DNA of 14,582 bases, taken from contig SCQK01000010.1 in assembly GCA_004321885.1 (NCBI GenBank), forward strand, positions 1-14,582. The letters run 5' to 3'. Source of the stretch: Patescibacteria group bacterium. GTDB taxonomy: Bacteria > Patescibacteriota > Patescibacteriia > Magasanikbacterales > GWA2-37-8. Numbering within the stretch: the first letter of the stretch is position 1; each line of letters starts with the position of its first letter. Shown here piece by piece: positions 3,905 to 14,335 of the stretch. A program made the position numbers and the translations under genes. The notes beneath the pieces are model-generated. The model saw only the letters and a program-made list of their open reading frames with translations, had not been told where the DNA came from and made no database searches.

Positions 3905-6055
3905 ATGCGTGTCTTGGCAGAAGAAAATTTTGAGAAAGAAGTCAAGGAAAATTTTTTGTTTCAATTTTTCGTTCCCAAAGCCGGCGTTTATTTTATTGAA
4001 ATCAGCGCGTCAGCCAAGAGCTGGTGGCAGAATTTATTAAAGTTTCGTTCGTTTTTTCGCGATGATGATTTGGCTTTAAAAATAGACGAGTCCGGATTTG
4101 ACAAACTTTCCGGCAAACGGGGCATATTTGATGGTGAAGCGGCGTGGAACGGCAACAAGTTGAAGAGTTTGGAGCAAACTATTGTTTTTTTACTGCCGCT
4201 TGGCGCCGGGGCGCACAAAATACAATTTTTTTCCGACCAAAGACCGGTTCTAAAAAAAATTATTGTCTACGAAAGTGGGAGAAATATTTTATATTCGCCG
4301 TCACCCGCGTCGCCGCGGGATGGCAATCGCAGGCCATGGCTGACGTTCGCATTTAAGGACCTTGTGATAAAAAATCTAAAAGTGAAAGCCAAAGCGGACG
4401 CGGACAAAGACGATTCTGATATTAAACTTGTAATTAACGGTCAAGTTGAAAAAAACGAAGAGTCAAAATCGCACCATGGCTGGTATTGGTGCGGCCGTGT
4501 TTTGAAAGGGAAAGCTAAAATTTTTGATAAAAGTTTTAATCGTTCGGAAGGAAGCGCCCGTTTTATTGAATTTTGGACTGATGGAATGCCGTTGTTAGAA
4601 GAGATTAAAATGCGAGTGACGGAAAAGGGGGTTGAAAAAACCGGTCGGGTTGTCGTGCGTAAGGACATTGTCGGTTCGGGATTGTCGGAGGTAAACCTGC
4701 GCGCGGCGGCTGATGAGAATGGCGATATAACCGGGAAGATAAAAACAGGAGAAGAGGTGTTGATAGATGAAATAGCTGTTTCGGGTAGTAATGTGGCGGG
4801 TATGCTGTCAAATAATTGGCATGGAGTTTATTATAATGGAATGAGCGGGTATGTGCACTCTTCTCTCATAGAACTTGCGGGGCAAGAGAGAAAAAGAATT
4901 ACCGATTTTATTCAAACCAAAGCCGGAGAATTGGGGATTGATAAAAATTTAGCCTTGAATTTGGCTTACTGCGAATCAAAGTGGCTACCGTTCGCGATTT
5001 CGGAAACCGGGAATAAAGGCATTTTTGAACTCGGAGGGGATACAATAATTGAGATAAATGGGAAATTAGGCGGTAATATTCGCGACCCTTATGACCCGTG
5101 GCAAAATATTGACGGGGGCCTGAAATATTTGAGGTTTCTTTTAGAGAGATACAAAGACACAGAAAATAGTTTGGAAAAATCCATTACCGCGTGGAGCCGC
5201 GGACCGGACAGAGTGCCGTATAACAAGCCATTTGTTTACGCCGAGCAATCCAGAGGAGCGCAGGCGCTTCTTGATGGCGTTTTGAAATCAAAGGCAGGAG
5301 AGAATATATTAAAAGCACTCGGGGCGCTGGTTGTTTTTTTGATTTTAGGTTTTGGGGCCATTGCCTTCGCCTCAAGCGGCGACAACGCAAGGGAGCGGCT
5401 GTGGTATTTGAAATTGGAGCGCGGAGTTGAGCTTGGACTGGAGCACGCGGCCTGGCTCGTGGACATTGGCGAGGTTGACTTGGCGGACTTTGAAGATGAT
5501 TTTGATTTGGACGGCGAGTTTGAAAAAGTCCAATTTTTTGTTTTCCCCTCAAATGTTGATGACGGGTATTTTACCCGCGTATTTCTTTCGGCGACTGAAT
5601 ATTTTGACGTGGACGGCATATTTATAGAGGGCAAAGGTCTTGATTTAAACGGCGGCGGAGAAAAAGAGCTTTTTGTCAGGACTGTGAAAGATGATATTTT
5701 TAATTTGTATATTTTTAGTTTGCGGGATAAAAAATTGCGTTTGTTTCCAGTGTATGACAACGAGATTACGCGGGAAAATGTAAAGAGCATTAAGTCAAAA
5801 TTTAGAATAGAAAACACACGCACTGGTGATGGAGATGGGAATGAGGCGGTTGCCTTTATAGCCAAACGAGCCAATTATAAGGGAGAATATTGCGATTGGT
5901 ATAACACTTTGGAATATTACGAGTGGAATGGAGTCGGTTTTGAAAAAAGTAGGACAGAAGCAGAGCCGCTTTTTCCGGAGGGTCATTGCGCCGCCCCAAG
6001 CAGTAGACCCGAATTATATGGCCCTGCGCCCACCATACAATGGTCGGTGAATTAA
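3905..6055 (+). CDS. Multidomain protein. N-terminal beta-rich region, then bacterial SH3 (SH3b) domain, then SLT/GH23 lytic transglycosylase domain, then a single TM helix, then an acidic C-terminal domain
   Basis: AGGAGA RBS at 3895. SH3b match: VNLRAAADENGDITGKIKTGEEVLIDE...WHGVYYNGMSGYVHSSLIEL. SLT match: LAYCESKWLPFAISETGNKGIFELGG (catalytic E-S then A.S..G..G motif), DPYDPWQNIDGGLKYLRFLLERY (DP..NI..G..YL motif) and ITAWSRGPDRV (AYNAG-like motif). One hydrophobic helix ILKALGALVVFLILGFGAIAFASS at about residue 470. No N-terminal signal peptide. Confidence 0.8.
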   Translation: MRVLAEENFEKEVKENFLFQFFVPKAGVYFIEISASAKSWWQNLLKFRSFFRDDDLALKIDESGFDKLSGKRGIFDGEAAWNGNKLKSLEQTIVFLLPLGAGAHKIQFFSDQRPVLKKIIVYESGRNILYSPSPASPRDGNRRPWLTFAFKDLVIKNLKVKAKADADKDDSDIKLVINGQVEKNEESKSHHGWYWCGRVLKGKAKIFDKSFNRSEGSARFIEFWTDGMPLLEEIKMRVTEKGVEKTGRVVVRKDIVGSGLSEVNLRAAADENGDITGKIKTGEEVLIDEIAVSGSNVAGMLSNNWHGVYYNGMSGYVHSSLIELAGQERKRITDFIQTKAGELGIDKNLALNLAYCESKWLPFAISETGNKGIFELGGDTIIEINGKLGGNIRDPYDPWQNIDGGLKYLRFLLERYKDTENSLEKSITAWSRGPDRVPYNKPFVYAEQSRGAQALLDGVLKSKAGENILKALGALVVFLILGFGAIAFASSGDNARERLWYLKLERGVELGLEHAAWLVDIGEVDLADFEDDFDLDGEFEKVQFFVFPSNVDDGYFTRVFLSATEYFDVDGIFIEGKGLDLNGGGEKELFVRTVKDDIFNLYIFSLRDKKLRLFPVYDNEITRENVKSIKSKFRIENTRTGDGDGNEAVAFIAKRANYKGEYCDWYNTLEYYEWNGVGFEKSRTEAEPLFPEGHCAAPSSRPELYGPAPTIQWSVN

Positions 6056-6112
6056 AAAATTTTAGGAGATATATGTTAAATATTTTTAACGTAAAAAATC
6101 ATAACGGGAACC

Positions 6113-6191
6113 GCGATACCCCCTCCTCACCTCCCCCTTATAAAGGGGGAGGAGTCGCCGCCGCCGGTAATTCCTCCCCTATAAGGGGAGG
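6113..6191. repeat. Family-1 hairpin elements, two adjacent copies. ATACCCCCTC...CCTCCCCC-TTATAAA-GGGGGAGG at 6113..6152. A shorter CCTCCCC-TATAA-GGGGAGG at 6173..6191
   Basis: Perfect 8-bp stem with 7-nt loop at 6130..6152. The same 23-mer recurs at 8589..8611, and the 5' flank ATACCCCCTC recurs at 8575. Lies in the intergenic region after the 716-aa gene; no T-tract follows. Confidence 0.7.
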
Positions 6192-6270
6192 GACAACCCC
6201 CCACGCCAAAAATTTTGGTGTGGGGGTAAAGGGTGGGGTTAAAACAAATTTCACCAAATATCAGGACCCG

Positions 6271-7101
6271 GAAAAGGGGATGAGCGGCGGCCAGCTCAAA
6301 TGGAGTTTGTGGTTTTCGGGCCGTCGGGTGATTTTTTACCGGGCCGCGCTTATTTTTGTCGCGGCCGCGGCCATAATTATCTGGCTGTTCAGCCTGTGGC
6401 GTTGGGTATTTTTTATCATAGAAATTCCCGATGCCAGGCGCGTGCGCGCCGAGCTCGCCCGCTTTGACGATTATAGCATCATCAATCAACGCATCGGGTT
6501 TCAGCCGGTGCAGATTTTCGGCGCCCAGTTTTTGGCGAGCGGGAAAGACAAATACGACGTCGCGGCCGAGATGTTTAATCCGAACACGCGGTCAGTGGTG
6601 TTTTTTGATTATTATTTTTTTTATAATAATACCTCCACTCCAAAACAATCCGCGTTTTTATTGCCGGGCCAAAGGCGGCCGCTGGTGGCTTTGGGCCTGG
6701 CCGGCGCCGCGGGCGAGCCGGTTTTGCATATAGAAAACGTGAAGTGGAAAAAAATTTCCGCTCACGATGTCAGCGACCCGAAGCAGTATCAGGATTATCG
6801 CCTAAATTTCGCGGTGACGGATTTTGTTTTTTCACCGGCTTCGGAAAGCGGGGCCGATTTTCCGGCCGTGAAATTTAATTTGACCAATAACGGTCCGTAC
6901 AGCTATAATGCCCCCAAGTTTTTGATTGGGCTGACGCAAAATGAGGAGCTGGTGAGCGTTTTTAGGGCGGATTTTGCTTCGTTTGCGTATGGCGAGACAA
7001 AAAATATGGATATTCGGCTGTTTGTTCCGAATGCCTCGGCCGCGGGCGCGATTGTTTATCCGCTCATAAACATTTATGATAAGGAGGCCTATCTGCGATG
7101 A
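6271..7101 (+). CDS. Hypothetical membrane-anchored protein (N-terminal TM, then extracytoplasmic domain). Translationally coupled to the SEDS gene
   Basis: The ORF track gives 6040..7101, but the first 77 codons are low-complexity readthrough of the palindromic repeats. ATG 6271 is preceded by GAAAAGGGG. Product has a TM segment ALIFVAAAAIIIWLFSLWRWVFFII. Stop TGA overlaps the ATG of the next gene (ATGA at 7098). Confidence 0.6.
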   Translation, partial: EKGMSGGQLKWSLWFSGRRVIFYRAALIFVAAAAIIIWLFSLWRWVFFIIEIPDARRVRAELARFDDYSIINQRIGFQPVQIFGAQFLASGKDKYDVAAEMFNPNTRSVVFFDYYFFYNNTSTPKQSAFLLPGQRRPLVALGLAGAAGEPVLHIENVKWKKISAHDVSDPKQYQDYRLNFAVTDFVFSPASESGADFPAVKFNLTNNGPYSYNAPKFLIGLTQNEELVSVFRADFASFAYGETKNMDIRLFVPNASAAGAIVYPLINIYDKEAYLR

Positions 7102-8222
7102 TTCGCGATTCCCTTGTAAAATTACGCTTCTTTGACTGGAAACTGCTGGCCGCGGTTTTTCTGTTGATAGGCATGGGGCTGGCCGCTATTTACAGCGTGG
7201 ATTTGTCACGCGGCTCCGAGCTGGTTTATTTTAAAAAACAGGTTATCGCCGCCGGCCTCGGCGCTATTTTTTTGGTTGCGGCCGGGCTGACGCAAAGCTC
7301 TTTCTGGCGCTTCGCGGCCAAGTGGCTGTACCTTGGTTCGCTTCTCTCTCTGGCGGCGGTTTTACTTTTCGGTTCCACCATTCACGGCACCAGGGGCTGG
7401 TTTTCGGCTTTTGGCTTTTCTTTTCAGCCCGTGGAATTCGCGAAAATCGCGCTGATACTTCTGCTGTCCTACATTATTTATAAATTTGGGCGCAAGTTTG
7501 AGCGGCCGCTGTTTTTTTTCGGCACCGGCGCTGTTACTTTGCTCATGCTCGGCTTGGTTTTGCTTCAGCCTGATTTGGGCTCGGCATTTCTTTTGGGACT
7601 GGTGTGGCTGGGATTGGTATGGTTGGCCGGCGCGCGCCGGATTTTTATTTTGCTTTTGCTCTTGACGGTGATTTTGCTGGGGGTGGGCTCCTGGTATTTG
7701 GCGCTGAAAGATTATCAAAAAGAACGGCTCATCACTTTCGTGGACCCGGGCCGTGACCAGTTGAACGCGGGTTATAACATCACCCAGTCGGTAATAGCGG
7801 TGGGCGCTGGCAAATGGTATGGCCGCGGGCTGGGATTTGGCTCGCAAAGCCAGTTGCGTTTTTTACCAGAAGCCCAAACCGACTTTATTTTTTCCGTTAT
7901 CGGCGAAGAGTTGGGTTTTGCCGGCGCGGCCGTGATGCTGGCCCTGTTTGCCGTTGTTTTTTGGCGGCTGTTGGTTTTTATCCGCTCGGCCAAGGATGAT
8001 TTCGCGGCCAGCGCGTCCGCCGGCGCGCTCGTGCTTTTTTTGACTCAATTTTTTACCAATGTCGGGGCCAATATCGGCCTGGTGCCCATCACCGGCGTTA
8101 CCCTGCCCTTTATCAGCTACGGCGGTTCTTCACTGGCGATGAACCTGGCGCTGGTCGGCATTCTGCAGAGTCTGGCGCAGAGTACGCGAGCGCAAGTTGA
8201 CAAGGGAGCGGATTTGAGTTAA
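7098..8222 (+). CDS. ftsW: SEDS-family peptidoglycan glycosyltransferase (FtsW/RodA/SpoVE)
   Basis: Polytopic membrane protein with the SEDS signature region ..RFLPEAQTDFIFSVIGEELGFAGAAVMLALF.. and ..LPFISYGGSSL... The symbol is family-level; FtsW versus RodA cannot be decided from sequence. Confidence 0.85.
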   Translation: MIRDSLVKLRFFDWKLLAAVFLLIGMGLAAIYSVDLSRGSELVYFKKQVIAAGLGAIFLVAAGLTQSSFWRFAAKWLYLGSLLSLAAVLLFGSTIHGTRGWFSAFGFSFQPVEFAKIALILLLSYIIYKFGRKFERPLFFFGTGAVTLLMLGLVLLQPDLGSAFLLGLVWLGLVWLAGARRIFILLLLLTVILLGVGSWYLALKDYQKERLITFVDPGRDQLNAGYNITQSVIAVGAGKWYGRGLGFGSQSQLRFLPEAQTDFIFSVIGEELGFAGAAVMLALFAVVFWRLLVFIRSAKDDFAASASAGALVLFLTQFFTNVGANIGLVPITGVTLPFISYGGSSLAMNLALVGILQSLAQSTRAQVDKGADLS

Positions 8223-8236
8223 TATGTGAAGCGCGT

Positions 8237-8575
8237 ATGTCTTTTAATAAAAAAAGCAAGGGATTTTCCGAGTGGGAGCAGAGCGCGAAGATGCTCGGCA
8301 CCTGTACGGTTTGCGGGCGGGCCTATGGCTCGGGCAAAATGAAAATTCTGAAAAATGAAAAAAAGTCGCGCCTTTTGCACGCGACTTGCGCGTTTTGCAA
8401 CAGTCATTTTATGGCCATGCTGATGAAAATGGGCGGCGGGATGAGCACGATAGGCATGGTGACGGATTTGAGCCTGAATGATTCCAGGCGCCTGCTGGAT
8501 AAAGCGCCGATTACCGTGAATGAAGCCATAGAGGGGTATAAATATATCAATGAAAAGTTTTCACAAGCGAAGTAA
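8237..8575 (+). CDS. Hypothetical small protein with a CxxC...CxxC zinc-ribbon motif
   Basis: Product contains CTVCG and CAFCN 26 residues apart. No family recognised. Confidence 0.5.
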   Translation: MSFNKKSKGFSEWEQSAKMLGTCTVCGRAYGSGKMKILKNEKKSRLLHATCAFCNSHFMAMLMKMGGGMSTIGMVTDLSLNDSRRLLDKAPITVNEAIEGYKYINEKFSQAK

Positions 8576-8624
8576 TACCCCCTCTTGTCCTCCCCCTTAT
8601 AAAGGGGGAGGTTAGGTAGGGGTA
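8575..8624. repeat. Family-1 hairpin element: ATACCCCCTCTTGTCCTCCCCCTTATAAAGGGGGAGG with an imperfect outer stem TACCCCCT/AGGGGTAT
   Basis: The 23-mer core is identical to 6130..6152. Located between the zinc-ribbon gene stop and the rplY RBS. Confidence 0.7.
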
Positions 8625-8630
8625 TATAAT

Positions 8631-9365
8631 ATGTCGTTTTCTTTATCCGCTAAAACCAGAACAGAAAAAGGGGAGAAGGTGAGGAGCAAAACCGCTATTC
8701 CGGCTGTTGTTTATGGCGCCGGTTCAAAAGTTGAATCTTTGACTTTGAGCGCGGCTGATTTCGCCAAACTGTACCAGTCCGCCGGCGAGGCCAGTCTGAT
8801 TGATTTGGCCATAGACGACAAGGCAAACGGCAAGGTTTTGATTCACGCTCTTCAATACGACCCGGTAACGGACGCGGTGGCCCATGTTGATTTGCGCCGG
8901 ATAGATATGACCAAACCCATGACCGCCTCGGTGCGGCTGGTGTTTAGCGGAGAGTCGCCGGTGATAAAAGAGCAGGGCGGCACCGTGGTGCGTCACCTGG
9001 AAGAGGCGCAGGTGCGCTGTCTGCCGAAGGATTTAATCGCGCAGATTACGGTGGATTTGGGCGCTTTGAAAACTTTTGACGATGTGGTGCGCGTGCGGGA
9101 TTTGTCCTTGCCAGCCGGCGTGGCCATTATCAATCACGGGCCCGAGGATTTGGTGGTCAAAGCCCTGCCGGCCCTCACCGAAGAAGAAATCAAGGCCATG
9201 GAAGAAGCGGCTAAGCCGGCTGATTTGTCTGCCATAGAAATGGCCGGCAAGAAGAAGGAAGAAGAAGCGGCCGAGGGTGAAGAAGGCGCCGCTCTCGAGG
9301 GCGCGGCCAAGCCCGCGGCCGAGGCTAAGGCAGAAGAGAAGAAAAAAGAAGAACCGAAGAAATAA
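8631..9365 (+). CDS. rplY: 50S ribosomal protein L25 / general stress protein Ctc, with a C-terminal E/K/A-rich extension
   Basis: N-terminal region ..IPAVVYGAGSKVESLTLSAADFAKL.. and ..DAVAHVDLRRID...VRLVFSGESPVIKEQGGTVVRHLEEAQVRCLPKDLIAQITVDL.. match the L25/Ctc family. GGGG RBS. Confidence 0.85.
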   Translation: MSFSLSAKTRTEKGEKVRSKTAIPAVVYGAGSKVESLTLSAADFAKLYQSAGEASLIDLAIDDKANGKVLIHALQYDPVTDAVAHVDLRRIDMTKPMTASVRLVFSGESPVIKEQGGTVVRHLEEAQVRCLPKDLIAQITVDLGALKTFDDVVRVRDLSLPAGVAIINHGPEDLVVKALPALTEEEIKAMEEAAKPADLSAIEMAGKKKEEEAAEGEEGAALEGAAKPAAEAKAEEKKKEEPKK

Positions 9366-10301
9366 TTATTTTATAGAAATTATTACCAGCCGATCTCGCC
9401 CCGCGAGGTCGGTTTTGATTTCGCAGGATGAGGCGGGCAGGTATTTTTTTATCAGGGTTTTTATGGCTTCGCTTTGGCGCGGGTCTATTTCCAGGAGTAT
9501 TGTCATTGCGAGGCCGCTTGCGGCCGAAGCAATCCCATCCGTTATGGCAAGGGATTGCTTTGCTCCACTTCGTTCCGTTCGCAATGACAGTTGGGACAAC
9601 AGTTCTTCGTACAGCGACAACCCGTTTATCGCGTCCGCGACCAGCGCGCCCCGCGGCTCTTTTTGGATAGAGGGTTCTTTGCCGTATTGCTCGGCCGTGA
9701 GATAGGGCAGATTGGCGGTGATGATGAGCGAAGAATATTGAATAGAGAATTGAGAATTATGGATAACGGGTTCCAGCAAATTTCCATGCAGAAATTTTAT
9801 TTTTACCCCGTGCTTTTTGGCGTTTTTTTTGGCGACGCGTAGGGCCGCGCGGGAAATGTCTGTGGCGATAAGTTTGATTGACCCCCTCTTAGTCTCCCCC
9901 TTAGGCGCGCTTCGCGCGCGGGAAGCAAGGGGGAGAGAACGAGCGACCGCAATCGGCATGCATCCGCTTCCCGTTCCTACGTCAATCAAAATCGTCTTCT
10001 CTATTCTCAATTCTCTATTCTCAATTCTTCGCACAACCTCCTCCACCATCAATTCGGTTTCGGGCCGGGGGATTAAGACATTTTTGTTCACCAAAAAATC
10101 CAGGCCGTAAAATTCCTTGTGTCCGGTGATGTAGGCGATGGGCCAGCCGCGCTCGCGGAGCCGGCAGTAGTATTTGAACTTCACCCGTTTCCAAAAACTC
10201 GGTTTGTATTCCGGGTGCGCCAAGATAAATTCGCGCGATTTGCCGATAGCGTGCGCTAAAAGAATTTCCGATTTAAGGTTTTCTAAACGTGAAAAAATCA
10301 T
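9366..10301 (-). CDS. prmC: Release factor glutamine methyltransferase PrmC (HemK). Carries two in-frame insertions that coincide with palindromic elements
   Basis: Motifs ..ILIDVGTGSGCMPIAVA.., ..LIITANLPYL.. (NPPY-type) and the C-terminal ..DLAGRDRLV... Extra segments LPLASRARSAPKGETKRGS and TERSGAKQSLAITDGIASAASGLAMT map exactly onto the repeats at 9881..9937 and 9502..9588. Confidence 0.85.
   Translation of the reverse strand: MIFSRLENLKSEILLAHAIGKSREFILAHPEYKPSFWKRVKFKYYCRLRERGWPIAYITGHKEFYGLDFLVNKNVLIPRPETELMVEEVVRRIENRELRIEKTILIDVGTGSGCMPIAVARSLPLASRARSAPKGETKRGSIKLIATDISRAALRVAKKNAKKHGVKIKFLHGNLLEPVIHNSQFSIQYSSLIITANLPYLTAEQYGKEPSIQKEPRGALVADAINGLSLYEELLSQLSLRTERSGAKQSLAITDGIASAASGLAMTILLEIDPRQSEAIKTLIKKYLPASSCEIKTDLAGRDRLVIISIK
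9502..9588. repeat. Family-2 palindromic element: GTCATTGCGAGG, GGCCGCTTGCGGCC, GAAGCAATCCC, loop, GGGATTGCTT, ...CGCAATGAC. Right arm degenerate. Sits in-frame inside prmC
   Basis: Nested inverted repeats read directly. Shares ends and inner arms with the copy at 10886..10978. On the minus strand it encodes ..LSLRTERSGAKQSLAITDGIASAASGLAMT... Confidence 0.75.
9881..9937. repeat. Family-1 related hairpin: ACCCCCTCTTAGTCTCCCCCTT with a 10-bp stem TCTCCCCCTT/AAGGGGGAGA around a GC-palindromic loop GCGCGCTTCGCGCGC. Sits in-frame inside prmC
   Basis: The 5' part matches the family-1 flank ACCCCCTCTT(G/A)T(C)CTCCCCCTT seen at 8577 and 6117. Encodes the PrmC insertion ARSLPLASRARSAPKGETKRGS. Confidence 0.7.
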
Positions 10302-11808
10302 AGCTGTTTAATTCTATCGGATTATTTATATCGCGCCAGCCTTTTTTCCGCAAAGCCGAGGCAATGTCAAGCTCGCCCAGCGCCGGGCTTTGCAAAAGCA
10401 AAAGTTCGTCAAAATTTTTCAGGTTCGCGCTTTCTATCCAACCGTTGATTTCTTTCTCATCGCGATTCCAGCGCCAATAATTTTTCGTTATCACGTCAAA
10501 ATCATAATTGGCGCCAAGGCCCGGGCCCCGATAGGGGACAAGCTGAATCGGGATTTTGATGTAGCGTTCCAAGAGGGGTTTGTCTATAAAATTGCTGTAC
10601 ACCAGCGCCTGTTTTTTGGACGGATTGTAGCGGGCGGAGATTTCTTGGCGCAGGGGCCGCCAGTCATTGAGCGGCAACATTGAGTTTAGTTTTTGCAGAC
10701 CGGGCAGAGAAATAACAACCGTCGCCAAGACCACCCATTGCCAGCGCCCCAGAAATCGCCAGAGCAAAAAAGCCATCAGCAGGATGACCCACGGATAAGC
10801 GGTTTCCACGAATTTGATGTCGTAAAGCCCGAGGGCGTAAGACACGATAAGGGGAAAGAGAATGAGCACGAGGAGGGGAATTACTGTCATTGCGAGGCCT
10901 GAGGCCGAAGCAATCCCTTCCGATAAAGTTTGGGATTGCTTCGTCGTCCGGTCATCCGACCGGACTCCTCGCAATGACAAAACCAAGCCGGCGGCAAATC
11001 CGGCCATGACAAGCAGGCCGAAAGGCCACCAAGCGATACCCGTAAACATTATTTGCATCGGGGTAATGAGTTGTAAAAATTTTGGCGGCACGTGCAAAAA
11101 CCACGCCAGTTGGGCCGTGTCTATATTGAATTTTGAGACAAGAGACGGGATGGCCCACACCAGCCAGAGGCCGGCTGGAGCAAGATTTATTTTAATCCAA
11201 CCCCGCAGCGCCGTTCCGCTGTCATTCCTCCGACTAAGTACTGGGGAATCCAGTATCAATATAATAAACTGGGCCGCGAAAACAAAAAGCGCGGTGAGGT
11301 GGGTGTAGAGGAGCAAGAGGGAAATGAGGGCGTAGAATGTCGCATCCGCCGCTCTTTGAGGACTTAAAAACACTCGTTCAAAATAATCAAAAGATAATAT
11401 TACCAGCAACAAAAATAGCGTGTAGCCGCGCCCGGTGGCCGAAAGCCAAATATGATAAGGAGAAATAGACAGCAGAAGGGCGGAGATAAGGGCTATATTT
11501 TCGTCAAACAACCTTTTGGTCACGCGATAGAGCGCCGCAATGCCCAGCAGTCCGAAAAGCAGGCTGGGCAAGCGCGTAAAAAATTCATTGGCCGGAAAAA
11601 TATAAAACCATAATTTTAGGAACAGCATGTGCAGGGGCGGATTGGTTTCCCATGTCCAAAATTGAATGCTTTGGCCCCATGGTTTTTGGCTGTAGGTGAA
11701 AGAAAATATTTCATCGTGCCAAAAATCGCCGTAGCGCGCCAGAACATACGCGCGCGCGGCCAGCGCGAGAAGCAAGATGATGATAAACAATTTCGCGGCT
11801 TTACGCAT
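10273..11808 (-). CDS. GT-C fold glycosyltransferase of the PMT/ArnT family (GT39/GT83-like), polytopic membrane protein
   Basis: N-terminal TM then the first-loop DE motif (..FWHDEIFSF..), ..[15 protein letters not shown].., about 11 predicted TM segments and a C-terminal soluble domain. Start overlaps the prfA stop by 8 nt; stop overlaps the prmC start by 29 nt. Contains two in-frame palindromic-element insertions. Confidence 0.75.
10886..10978. repeat. Family-2 palindromic element, intact copy. GTCATTGCGAGG, GCCTGAGGC, GAAGCAATCCC, loop, GGGATTGCTTC, TCCGGTCATCCGACCGGA, CCTCGCAATGAC. Sits in-frame inside the GT-C gene
   Basis: Perfect 12-bp terminal inverted repeat plus three internal hairpins. 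Encodes ..[32 protein letters not shown].. in the same relative frame as the prmC copy. Confidence 0.8.
11221..11251. repeat. Family-3 related degenerate hairpin GTCATTCC-TCCGACTAAGTACTG-GGGAATCC inside the GT-C gene
   Basis: Shares GTCATTCC and the CCGACTAAGT core with 12885..12915. Encodes [11 protein letters not shown] in frame. Confidence 0.5.
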
Positions 11809-12862
11809 TGTCTTCTTTTTTTAAAGTTTCAATGATTGGTCCCAAATCGCCTTCCAAAATTGTTTTGATGTTGTTCCAGTTTTGATGAATGCGGTGGTCC
11901 GTAATGCGGTCTTGCGGGAAATTGTAGGTGCGGATTTTCTCGCTGCGGTCGCCGGTGCCGATTTGCCGGCGCCGTTTTTCGGTGATTTCTTTCTGCCGCT
12001 TTTCCATTTCCGCGGCGTGCAGGCGGGCGCGCAAGACTGCCATGGCTTTTTCGCGGTTGGCTGTCTGCGAGCGCTCGTCCTGGCATTGCACTATCATGCC
12101 TGTAGGGATATGCACAATACGCACAGCCGAATAGGTGGTGTTGACGCTTTGGCCTCCGTGGCCCCCGGCTGTCATTGTATCAATGCGCAAATCTTTGGGG
12201 TCTATTTTAAATTCTGTTTCTTCCATTTCGGGCAGGACCGCCACCGTGACAGTGGATGTATGCACGCGCCCTGATTTTTCCGTGTCTGGCACGCGCTGTA
12301 CGCGGTGCACCCCCATCTCATATTTCAAATCCCCGTAAACTCCGCCGGCCGGCGGACCCGCCTCCACGGAAAAAATCACTTCCTTAAAACCGCCGATGCC
12401 GATGCGGTTCGCGTCCATTAAATGGGTTTTCCAACCACGGCTTTCGGCGTAGCGGCTGTATAGGCGAAAGAGTTCGGCCGCGAACAGGGCCGATTCATCG
12501 CCGCCGGCCGCGGCGCGGATTTCCACGATGACGTTTTTTTTGTCAAACGGGTCTTGGGGGCGGAGCAGTTCCTCCAGTTCTTTCAGGAGGCGCGCAATTT
12601 TTTCTTCCAATTCAATCAGCTCGGCTTGGGCCAGCTCGCCCAGCTCGCCTGCCTCTTTTTCGGCCACCAGCCGCGTTTCGGCCAAATTTTTTTCCAGGGT
12701 TTCCAGCTCGCTGATTTTGGCCGCGGCCGGCTTCAAATCATTGTATTCCCGCGCTCTTTCTTTCAATTTTTTTGGGTCGTTAAGCACGGCCGGGCTCTGC
12801 AAATCAGCTTCCAGTTTTTGGAGTTTATTTTTTATTTCTATGTATTTTGAATTCATATTCAT
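11801..12862 (-). CDS. prfA: Peptide chain release factor 1
   Basis: Product contains ..[14 protein letters not shown].. , GGQ motif (..[13 protein letters not shown]..; i.e. GGQ) and the RF1 tripeptide-region ..VEAGPPAGG.../PxT-type region. The ORF track extends to 12889 ([10 protein letters not shown]..), but those codons derive from the tandem GTCATTCCC repeat. Likely start is ATG 12862 or 12856 (..[11 protein letters not shown]..), preceded by GGGAA. Confidence 0.85.
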
Positions 12863-12915
12863 TGTCATTCCCGCTTCCCCCATTGTCATTCCCCCGACTA
12901 AGTCGTGGGAATGAC
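12861..12915. repeat. Family-3 hairpin GTCATTCCC-CCGACTAAGTCG-TGGGAATGAC (12885..12915), preceded by a tandem half-copy CATTGTCATTCCC (12861..12873)
   Basis: 9-bp stem GTCATTCCC/GGGAATGAC with an inner CGAC-TAA-GTCG mini-hairpin. Located at or over the prfA 5' end and RBS. Confidence 0.7.
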
Positions 12916-13534: not shown

Positions 13535-14335
13535 ATGGTAAAATTACCCGGTTTGGCCGAGATGCTTTCGGCCGGTGTGCACTTTGGGCATCAGAAATCC
13601 CGCTGGCACCCCAAGATGAAGGAGTTTCTTTTCGGCACGCGCAACGGCGTGCACATCATCAATCTGGAGCGCACCCAAGAGGAGCTGGAAAAAGCCTTAA
13701 ATTACGTGAAGGGCCTGGCCGCCGAAGGCAAGGTTATTTTATTTGTGGGCACCAAAAGGCAGGCGCGCGAACTGTTGAAAGACGCGGCGCAAAAATGCGG
13801 CATGCCCTATTTATCCGAGCGCTGGATTGGCGGCCTGGTCACCAATTTTGAAGAGGTGAAAAAGAGATTGAAAAGATACGATGAGCTGAAAGAAATGCTT
13901 AAGACCGGCGACGTGGAAAAATACACCAAAAAAGAACAGGGCCAGTTCAAAAAAACATTAGCGAAAATGGATAAGTATTTGTTTGGCCTGGTGGGTTTGA
14001 CAAAAATGTCCGATGCCCTGTATGTGGCTGATATGCGCACCGAAAAAACCGCTCTGGCCGAGGCCCAGCGCAAGCGCGTGCCCGTGGTGGCTGTTTCCGA
14101 CAGCAATACGGACCCGTCCAAAGTGGACTATGCCATTCCGGCCAACGACGACGCCCTGGGCGCCATAAAAATGATGGCTGATTTGGTGGCCGAGGCAATA
14201 AACGAAGGCAAACAGGCCTGGGAAGCAAAAAAGGCCGAGAAGATAAAGGAAGCGGCCGCGGCCGCCGCGACGGCCAAAGCCGAAGAAAAACCTGTGAAAG
14301 AAAGGAAGGCAGTGAAGAAAGAAGAGAGTATTTAA
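13535..14335 (+). CDS. rpsB: 30S ribosomal protein S2 with a C-terminal K/A/E-rich extension
   Basis: ..[18 protein letters not shown].., ..[10 protein letters not shown].., ..[11 protein letters not shown].., ..[13 protein letters not shown].. are S2 signatures. Confidence 0.9.

Follow-up and report, generated by a model that had tools for sequence, protein, structure and literature searches.

The stretch of DNA considered here, 14,582 nucleotides (nt) of contig SCQK01000010.1 from a Patescibacteria group bacterium and hereafter called the window, carries three copies of a short, G/C-rich sequence unit. Copy A lies in frame in the gene for a conserved hypothetical membrane protein, copy B occupies the spacer in front of rplY/ctc (ribosomal protein L25), and copy C lies in frame in prmC, the gene for the release-factor glutamine methyltransferase; a fourth unit, of opposite arrangement, follows the first one within copy A. 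Judged from their layout, these sequences very probably constitute a family of G/C-rich potential intrastrand triplex motifs, within the class known under the names of BoxC repeats (E. coli), potential intrastrand triplex (PIT) elements (Hoyne, Maher et al. 2000) and TM_ECO (PMC4666352). The parts of each copy are as follows.

6118..6152, + strand: copy A unit 1, with 8/8 perfect triads and the in-frame translation TPSSPPPYKGGG
6119-6126, + strand: third-strand block CCCCCTCC of unit 1, followed by the linker TCA (6127-6129)
6130-6137, + strand: pyrimidine arm CCTCCCCC of unit 1, followed by the loop TTATAAA (6138-6144) and the purine arm GGGGGAGG (6145-6152)
6172..6238, + strand: copy A unit 2, in the opposite, BoxC-like arrangement
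6172-6179, + strand: pyrimidine arm TCCTCCCC of unit 2, followed by the loop TATAA and the purine arm GGGGAGGG (6185-6192)
6196-6227, + strand: extra hairpin ACCCCCCACGCC..GGTGTGGGGGT in the linker of unit 2
6231-6238, + strand: third block GGGTGGGG of unit 2, which mirrors the purine arm, T standing opposite A
8577..8625, + strand: copy B, intergenic and palindromic, with 7 perfect triads and a third block on both sides
8578-8584, + strand: third-strand block CCCCCTC of copy B, followed by the linker TTGTC (8585-8589)
8590-8596, + strand: pyrimidine arm CTCCCCC of copy B, followed by a loop and the purine arm GGGGGAG (8604-8610)
8615-8622, + strand: 3' block GGTAGGGG of copy B
9881..9936, + strand: copy C, in frame in prmC (which is on the - strand), with 8/8 triads
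9882-9889, + strand: third-strand block CCCCCTCT of copy C, followed by the linker TAG (9890-9892)
9893-9900, + strand: pyrimidine arm TCTCCCCC of copy C, paired with the purine arm GGGGGAGA at 9929-9936

Read along one strand, the general unit is about 36 nt long and consists of CCCCCTC(Y), a linker of 3-5 nt, (Y)CTCCCCC, a loop and GGGGGAG(R). The second and third of these blocks can pair as a Watson-Crick hairpin, and the first, CCCCCTC(C/T), is the mirror image of the second, (C/T)CTCCCCC, rather than a direct or inverted copy of it. The original prediction, made from the letters of the window, had described the first block as a 5' flank of a mobile hairpin; the sequence is indeed there, and it proves to be a structural block that mirrors the hairpin arm instead of a mere flank, which is what places the element in the intrastrand-triplex-motif class. 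On the C-rich strand, the first block would lie parallel to the purine arm after a turn of 3-5 nt and give C+.G-C and T.A-T triads, as in pyrimidine-motif geometry, and on the G-rich complementary strand the GAGGGGG block would lie antiparallel to the purine arm and give G.G-C and A.A-T triads, as in purine-motif geometry. When a script searched the window for perfect layouts with 7 or more triads, copies A, B and C were the only three to come up, each on the + strand; 200 Markov simulations gave 0.005 on average. The 37-nt units at 6116-6152 and 8575-8611 are 92% identical, and the 23-nt hairpin CCTCCCCCTTATAAAGGGGGAGG is identical at 6130-6152 and 8589-8611, as first reported, with none expected in 200 shuffles. 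The 23-nt 5' half, ACCCCCTCYTnnnCTCCCCCTTA, occurs at 6118, 8577 and 9881, the last being the start of the prmC variant that had been recognised by this shared half. The shortened hairpin noticed at 6173-6191 is likewise present and belongs to the second, oppositely arranged unit that ends in GGGTGGGG.

The published stem criterion (Hoyne, ITxF) is at least 6-8 triads with no more than one mismatch. The loops of copies A and B, of 3-5 and 7 nt, are inside the Hoyne limit (0-10 nt) and exceed the ITxF limit (1-6 nt) by 1 nt, an excess that disappears if the TT/AA pairs are counted as stem. The 28-nt loop of copy C, which holds the GC mini-hairpin GCGCGC-TTC-GCGCGC, and the 38-nt linker of unit 2 are outside both limits, each holding a hairpin of its own, and unit 2 fits the triplex layout provided that T may stand opposite A. 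Copy B as a whole is a 51-nt imperfect palindrome (8575-8625). Two other structural identities were tried and rejected: a G-quadruplex or i-motif for the basic unit, which has two G5 or C5 tracts per strand (nuclear magnetic resonance, NMR, ruled out a quadruplex for TM_ECO), and the strict TM_ECO/BoxC pattern CCCTCNCCC-N3-6-GGGNGAGGG-N3-GGGNGAGGG, for which a regular-expression search of both window strands gave no match. Unlike the basic unit, the composite at 6118-6238 does have enough tracts for a G-quadruplex or i-motif. As a separate observation, a subfamily with a GC mini-hairpin in the loop (TGCGCTTCGCA, GCGCGGAGCGCGC), resembling the expanded loop of the prmC copy (GGCGCGCTTCGCGCGC), was found in Acidimicrobiia (L136, L155, L164, L170, L172, L175, L188, L202, L223, L235) and in viral contigs (L008, L068, L111).

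The three-block layout can be followed outside the window, in a genome collection and in viral contigs. The genome collection was searched with a pattern that comprised the 5' half only, position 8 of the pyrimidine arm being left free, and at least 124 matches (121 unique) were obtained. The purine arm, which is absent from that pattern, is present in all but 2 of the genome matches listed; position 8 of the third block equals position 8 of the pyrimidine arm in 121/121 unique copies listed (T/T in 77, C/C in 44), and the purine arm is complementary at position 8 in 106 of 119 among the matches listed. These copies also bear out the early remark that stems are conserved and loops variable. 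In viral contigs, a scan for the hairpin CTCCCCCTT..AAGGGGGAG that ignored the flanks gave 70 distinct hairpins with 140 flanks of 15 nt; 15 of the 140 flanks contain the mirror heptamer and 1 a direct copy, with GGGGGAG in 3 and GAGGGGG in 0, and this generic hairpin pattern is too common in viral contigs to serve as a family search. Selection of viral sites on C5-N9-C5TT..AAG5 only yielded 39 unique sites. In 20 of them, positions 6-8 mirror each other perfectly, the purine arm agreeing in most, and at least six mirror-consistent variants are seen (TCT, TCC, CCT, CCC, TTT, CTC). Kinship among copies inflates such covariation counts; several distinct mirror variants in unrelated contigs would be difficult to explain without a constraint on three-block geometry, and the covariation of all three blocks supports a constraint on three-strand geometry. 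Finally, in the genome copies listed, sequence conservation stops at the first A on the 5' side and at purine position 8 on the 3' side, and the unit thus has sharp boundaries, the exception on the 3' side being a 3' third block in about one quarter of the copies listed.

The window copies sit among the following genes; the homologues of its PrmC, by name and origin, place the uncultured bacterium near Candidatus Magasanikbacteria.

8-1564, + strand: LamG-repeat protein
3905-6055, + strand: SLT/SH3 protein
6040/6073-7101, + strand: conserved hypothetical membrane protein, host of copy A, 342 residues from ATG 6073
7098-8222, + strand: FtsW/RodA
8237-8575, + strand: small open reading frame (ORF), stop codon 8573-8575
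8631-9365, + strand: rplY/ctc (ribosomal protein L25), directly downstream of copy B
9366-10301, - strand: prmC (release-factor glutamine methyltransferase), host of copy C
10273-11808, - strand: PMT_2 glycosyltransferase
11801-12889, - strand: RF1
13535-14335, + strand: S2

An independent Logan assembly of SRR8426592 encodes an identical PrmC and an identical 342-residue protein; the one hit of an exact-protein look-up was a 9.7-kb Logan contig that lies within the window. The original prediction had dismissed the N-terminal part of the 6040..7101 ORF as a spurious extension produced by the repeats, and this has to be reversed. Eight homologues (36-44% identical) start MLNIYNxxNHNxD, which falls on window residue 12 in the alignment (ATG 6073, the start annotated by NCBI too), so that the conserved N-terminus MLNIFNVKNHNGN precedes the repeats and shares their frame, and all eight resume at DFTKYxDP downstream of them. 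Because the homologues conserve the N-terminus upstream of copy A, the repeat block 6118-6238 is, on this alignment, an in-frame insertion of about 30 extra residues. The view that the repeats occupy both coding and non-coding sites consequently holds for copy C, which is coding, and copy B, which is intergenic; copy A, placed among the intergenic copies at first, is coding as well. No strain-level empty site was found for either host gene, the closest homologues being 56% identical for prmC and 44% for the 6073 gene. At the far end of the window, in and after the LamG-domain gene, positions 91-2264 contain repeats with a period of about 690 nt (four copies, 71-96% identical over 80 nt), each of which closes with ..MQLYKMG*, and this suggests tandemly duplicated LamG-domain genes or modules.

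In PrmC, copy C encodes the extra segment LPLASRARSAPKGETKRGS, as had been recognised, and it corresponds to L123-S141, between the helix at 115-122 and the strand at 143-148. In 27 aligned orthologues (49-62% identical), the place of this segment, after motif I and before the ATDIS strand, varies in length, and many of them have no extra residues there; the segment was looked for as a conserved feature of the orthologues and is absent from all 27. An AlphaFold model of PrmC, built from the orthologue alignment, has a mean pLDDT (predicted local distance difference test) score of 82.4 with low confidence at the insert. The inserts that other orthologues carry at the site (HCEERSDEAIS.., FPRKWD..DSRFRGND, FISASQEIPRQVRND) are presumably derived from other hairpin repeats; in all, the loop that follows GTGSGCxPI (window residues 121-142) holds inserts resembling what we take to be at least four hairpin-repeat families (orthologues P0006, P0007/12/34, P0014 and P0027). 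This suggests that the PrmC loop is a recurrent landing site.

Other repeats are also found in and around this gene. For example, a different hairpin repeat (GTCATTGCGAGG...GAAGCAATCCC...GGGATTGCTT) is in frame at 9500-9590 in prmC, where it translates as SLRTERSGAKQSLAITDGIASAASGLAMT, and at 10886-10945 in the PMT_2 gene, where it contributes 31 residues. Its product in PrmC is the second repeat-derived segment of the model, residues 243-260, with pLDDT below 50, and the HCEERSDEAIS insert of orthologue P0027 is related to it. In addition, a 38-nt inverted repeat pair at 9720-9757 and 10003-10040 (GAATAGAGAATTGAGAAT / ATTCTCAATTCTCTATTC, 84% complementary) flanks the methyltransferase core and translates as IHNSQFSIQYSS and RRIENRELRIEK; both positions are occupied in orthologues by other low-complexity inserts, and a GAATTGAGGAAT-like sequence similar to this pair flanks the triplex unit in locus L124. 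The canonical catalytic motif of PrmC/HemK is NPPY, and NLPY is present in 28/28 aligned Magasanikbacteria-type PrmC sequences (residues 197-200, window 9704-9715).

Among the matches listed, the unit is distributed over at least 77 assemblies (at least 117 genome loci) from many phyla, including several classes of Patescibacteria, Gamma-, Alpha- and Deltaproteobacteria, Binatia, Acidimicrobiia, Chloroflexota, Bacteroidota, Chlorobiaceae, Spirochaetota, Margulisiibacteriota and Abditibacteriaceae, and it also occurs in viral contigs. The hosts include cultured isolates, namely Vibrio anguillarum, Photobacterium, Psychrobacter, Saccharophagus, Celerinatantimonas and Zooshikella, and the chromid of Photobacterium sp. 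GJ3 has the unit in at least 40 places. The loci listed from the genome collection and from a metagenome scan do not include the genome to which the window belongs. The variable parts (position 8, linker and loop) are identical in 48% of within-assembly pairs versus 0.7% of between-assembly pairs among the matches listed, which indicates copying inside genomes or concerted evolution; genome-specific subfamilies of this kind point to copying within a genome. Unit 1 is followed by a unit-2 composite with a 3-nt linker (TTA, CCG or CTG) in 7 of the 124 genome copies listed. Larger assemblages were also observed: the unit can occur in 3-4 tandem copies, which are in frame in lgt of 'bacterium AMR_MDS_2570' (L205:2684-3847), with a period of 117-156 nt plus a second hairpin, and which in metagenome contigs L287 and L290 lie back-to-back, every 38 nt, shortly before a gene start; and in Candidatus Binatia (L128, L159, L177, L184, L194, L197, L203, L212 and others) the unit is nested in a larger palindrome of GTCATTCCCGCG..GGGAATCC repeats (ggaatccat-unit-tctggattcc), forming composite mosaic elements.

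Residence in coding sequence is a repeated feature of these copies. In other genomes, 19 open frames that extend 80 codons or more to either side of the element contain the unit among the matches listed, and all 10 frames that were checked have Pfam domains on both sides of it: PheT, a reverse transcriptase, LigA, AtpG, YchF, a UvrD-like helicase, PyrG, Lgt (with 4 tandem copies), a MiaB-like protein and CysS. Six of the 10 come from assemblies labelled as Patescibacteria lineages, and the coding copies use both strands and at least three reading frames. The only case with close relatives is AtpG of Saccharibacteria, in which three relatives (84-86% identical) lack the unit and have an ancestral SKKEVKEAIEN.. 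segment of similar length instead. The unit replaces about 50 nt of that segment without any duplication, and a 77%-identical relative has a degenerate unit in the identical place. The pattern fits a landing hot spot, recombination or patch-type repair, and does not fit simple cut-and-paste transposition; being a replacement, it yielded no junction signature.

Several points weigh against assigning the window copies to the triplex class, or against reading much function into the assignment. All copy counts and layouts for the window come from one contig of 14.6 kb; copy B violates the position-8 rule (T versus C), the 28-nt loop of copy C exceeds the published limits, and the two position-8 alleles may represent two inherited subfamilies instead of many independent compensatory changes. 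Neither the flanks of the genome copies nor the AtpG case revealed a mobilising enzyme, a target-site duplication or an empty-site allele. Triplex folding of the window copies is a potential only, the folding by circular dichroism (CD) and NMR being known from E. coli TM_ECO oligonucleotides. Even there, the triplex went undetected in double-stranded DNA and in vivo, and PIT elements have neither promoter nor terminator activity in E. coli (PMC4666352). Five C+.G-C triads in a row are unfavourable at neutral pH, and RNA can form pyrimidine-motif and not purine-motif triplexes (PMC4666352).

The best-surviving alternative, doubtful though still to be reckoned with, is that the unit is a non-autonomous element of the REP/REPIN (repetitive extragenic palindromic) or miniature inverted-repeat transposable element (MITE) kind, whose hairpin is recognised by a transposase encoded elsewhere (e.g., of the RAYT/IS200 type), the mirror block being incidental. 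The sharp unit boundaries in unrelated contexts, the genome-specific subfamilies, the presence of the unit in viral contigs and in chromids or plasmids, the tandem and nested copies (L205, L287, L290) and the copy at an identical site in two AtpG lineages would all be expected of such an element. It would lack terminal inverted repeats beyond the hairpin, a GTAG-type tetranucleotide and any target-site duplication or preference, no transposase is among the annotated genes of the window, and the strict mirror covariation would be left unexplained. Membership in the established groups was rejected on similar grounds: in the case of REP/REPIN-RAYT, there is no conserved flank next to the hairpin and 2/3 window copies are intragenic; in the case of MITEs, about 36 nt falls short of the criterion of about 50-500 bp, no duplication or target preference is seen, and the AtpG unit replaces a segment. 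Of the early proposal of a mobile element rather than a terminator, the second half and the dispersal of the family have held up, and mobility itself is inferred, no transposase, terminal inverted repeats or target-site duplication having been seen.

An RNA-level hairpin, acting as a terminator, as an mRNA stabiliser or through sequestration of the Shine-Dalgarno sequence (CCUCC pairing with GGAGG), is improbable. In its favour stands the position of copy B, which begins 1 nt past a stop codon (8573-8575), takes up the 55-nt spacer in front of rplY and closes with a 3' block that ends 8 nt short of the rplY ATG at 8631 and may serve as the rplY ribosome-binding site. The predicted fold of copy B (-35.5 kcal/mol, z = -4.95) and that of the copy A composite (-77.4 kcal/mol, z = -6.7) are strong, and in the 125 copies listed a gene starts 5-18 nt after the purine arm in 20 and within 14 nt past the other end in 16, with a stop codon no more than 9 nt upstream of the unit in 12. 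Gene starts were called crudely from ORFs, and short spacers make closeness to starts partly trivial. An intrinsic terminator was rejected since, as stated from the beginning, no T-tract follows any copy; none of the copies was called by the terminator scan, copies A and C are inside ORFs, and where rplY and prmC converge it is another hairpin, at 9388-9414, that makes a plausible terminator. A search of Rfam 15 (E <= 1) gave no match at the copies and two sub-threshold matches at 9130-9438. Against an RNA role stand also at least 10 copies elsewhere inside coding sequence, the inactivity of PIT elements as promoters or terminators, and the absence of orientation bias in the genome copies listed, both relative to flanking genes (34 versus 30) and relative to GC skew (58 versus 62).

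A conserved peptide module (LPLxKGExxRG or TPSSPPYxGGE) under protein-level selection, with the DNA hairpin as a by-product, is very unlikely: identical peptides do occur in many proteins, but at least three frames on both strands are used, copy B and most of the 124 copies listed are intergenic, the segment is absent from orthologues and falls in a low-confidence loop of the PrmC model, and what is conserved is the nucleotide sequence, the untranslated mirror geometry included. Chance low-complexity sequence or an assembly artefact, which the abundance of G/C homopolymers and the origin from a metagenome-assembled genome might bring to mind, is scarcely credible given the zero expectation by chance, the identical proteins of the independent Logan assembly and the unit's occurrence in isolates of Vibrio anguillarum, Photobacterium, Psychrobacter and Zooshikella.

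If the copies are intrastrand triplex motifs, as favoured here, the triplex would form only for short periods in which replication, repair or transcription leaves the DNA single-stranded. Structure-dependent copying within the genome might then proceed through a trans-acting enzyme or through template switching at stalled forks. Copies in genes would persist only where the frame is kept and a surface loop tolerates them, much as the Rickettsia palindromic elements do, and intergenic copies such as B would be neutral fillers of operon spacers, with a G-rich 3' block that could double as a ribosome-binding site. Taken further, and quite tentatively, the family may represent a pan-bacterial, self-propagating structured DNA that spreads by its three-block fold rather than by a transposase of its own and that, in small genomes poor in intergenic space such as those of Patescibacteria, routinely remodels essential proteins, by inserting in frame or by replacing parts of loops, at recurrent sites such as the AtpG loop and the PrmC loop between motif I and strand 2. 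Since their first description, neither a function nor a way of spreading has been assigned to the BoxC/PIT/TM repeats; to this class, the present analysis adds a C5-based family in at least 77 assemblies and in viral contigs, three-block covariation, genome-specific subfamilies and in-frame tolerance in essential genes. In annotation, inserts of this type should be flagged as repeat-derived, and the upstream conserved start at 6073 should be kept.

Among known systems, rho-independent terminators also have a G/C-rich stem-loop, from which the window copies differ in lacking a U-tract, in lying inside ORFs and in being independent of orientation. The mirror repeats that form H-DNA share the homopurine/homopyrimidine mirror, to which the window unit adds an inverted repeat, so that one strand supplies all three segments; its tracts, unlike theirs, are only 7-8 nt. 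REP sequences, bacterial interspersed mosaic elements (BIMEs) and REPINs are likewise short, imperfect and highly repeated palindromes that fall into genome-specific subfamilies and often occupy operon spacers or the ends of genes, but REPs are extragenic by definition, have a tetranucleotide beside the hairpin and are associated with RAYT, whereas the window unit has no such tetranucleotide, the 14.6-kb window shows no RAYT gene and 2/3 of its copies are coding. The Rickettsia palindromic elements (Ogata et al. 2000, via PMC10969869) are comparable in being palindromic and in frame in unrelated housekeeping genes, with the insert in a surface loop and the fold of the host protein apparently preserved; they are larger (about 100-150 bp), confined to Rickettsia and encode a longer conserved peptide, whereas the window unit of about 36 nt is found in many phyla and has a mirror block.

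The closest relatives remain the BoxC/PIT/TM repeats. In E. coli K-12, there are 23 copies, all intergenic, without strand bias and including some palindromic pairs; the motif is not found on phages, plasmids or transposons, and the loci that bear it vary more between strains than control loci do (PMC4666352). Microcystis, Nostoc, Enterobacter and Neisseria are rich in G/C-rich motifs of this type, the class being known in cyanobacteria as well (PMC4666352), and the isolated G-rich strand of the E. coli motif forms a stable triplex in vitro, as determined by CD and NMR (Holder et al. 2015, PMC4666352). The window family differs in its C5-based blocks, in place of the E. coli CCCTCNCCC, and a blastn search of 5,426 E. 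coli genomes with the window composite gave no match; moreover, the E. coli motif is always intergenic and off phages and plasmids, whereas the window family occurs in frame in genes, in viral contigs, on chromids and in many phyla. In both, three G/C-rich blocks on one strand are joined by short linkers and repeated in many copies without strand bias, oppositely arranged units form palindromic pairs, and conserved stems carry variable loops. Two of the second loops in unit 2 and its relatives (CCCTCCCC..GGGGAGGG-TTA/CCG/CTG-GGGTGGGG), TTA and CCG, are even the ones known from E. coli types A and B. The repeats of the window are, in sum, a new sequence family, with a new host range, for a known class.

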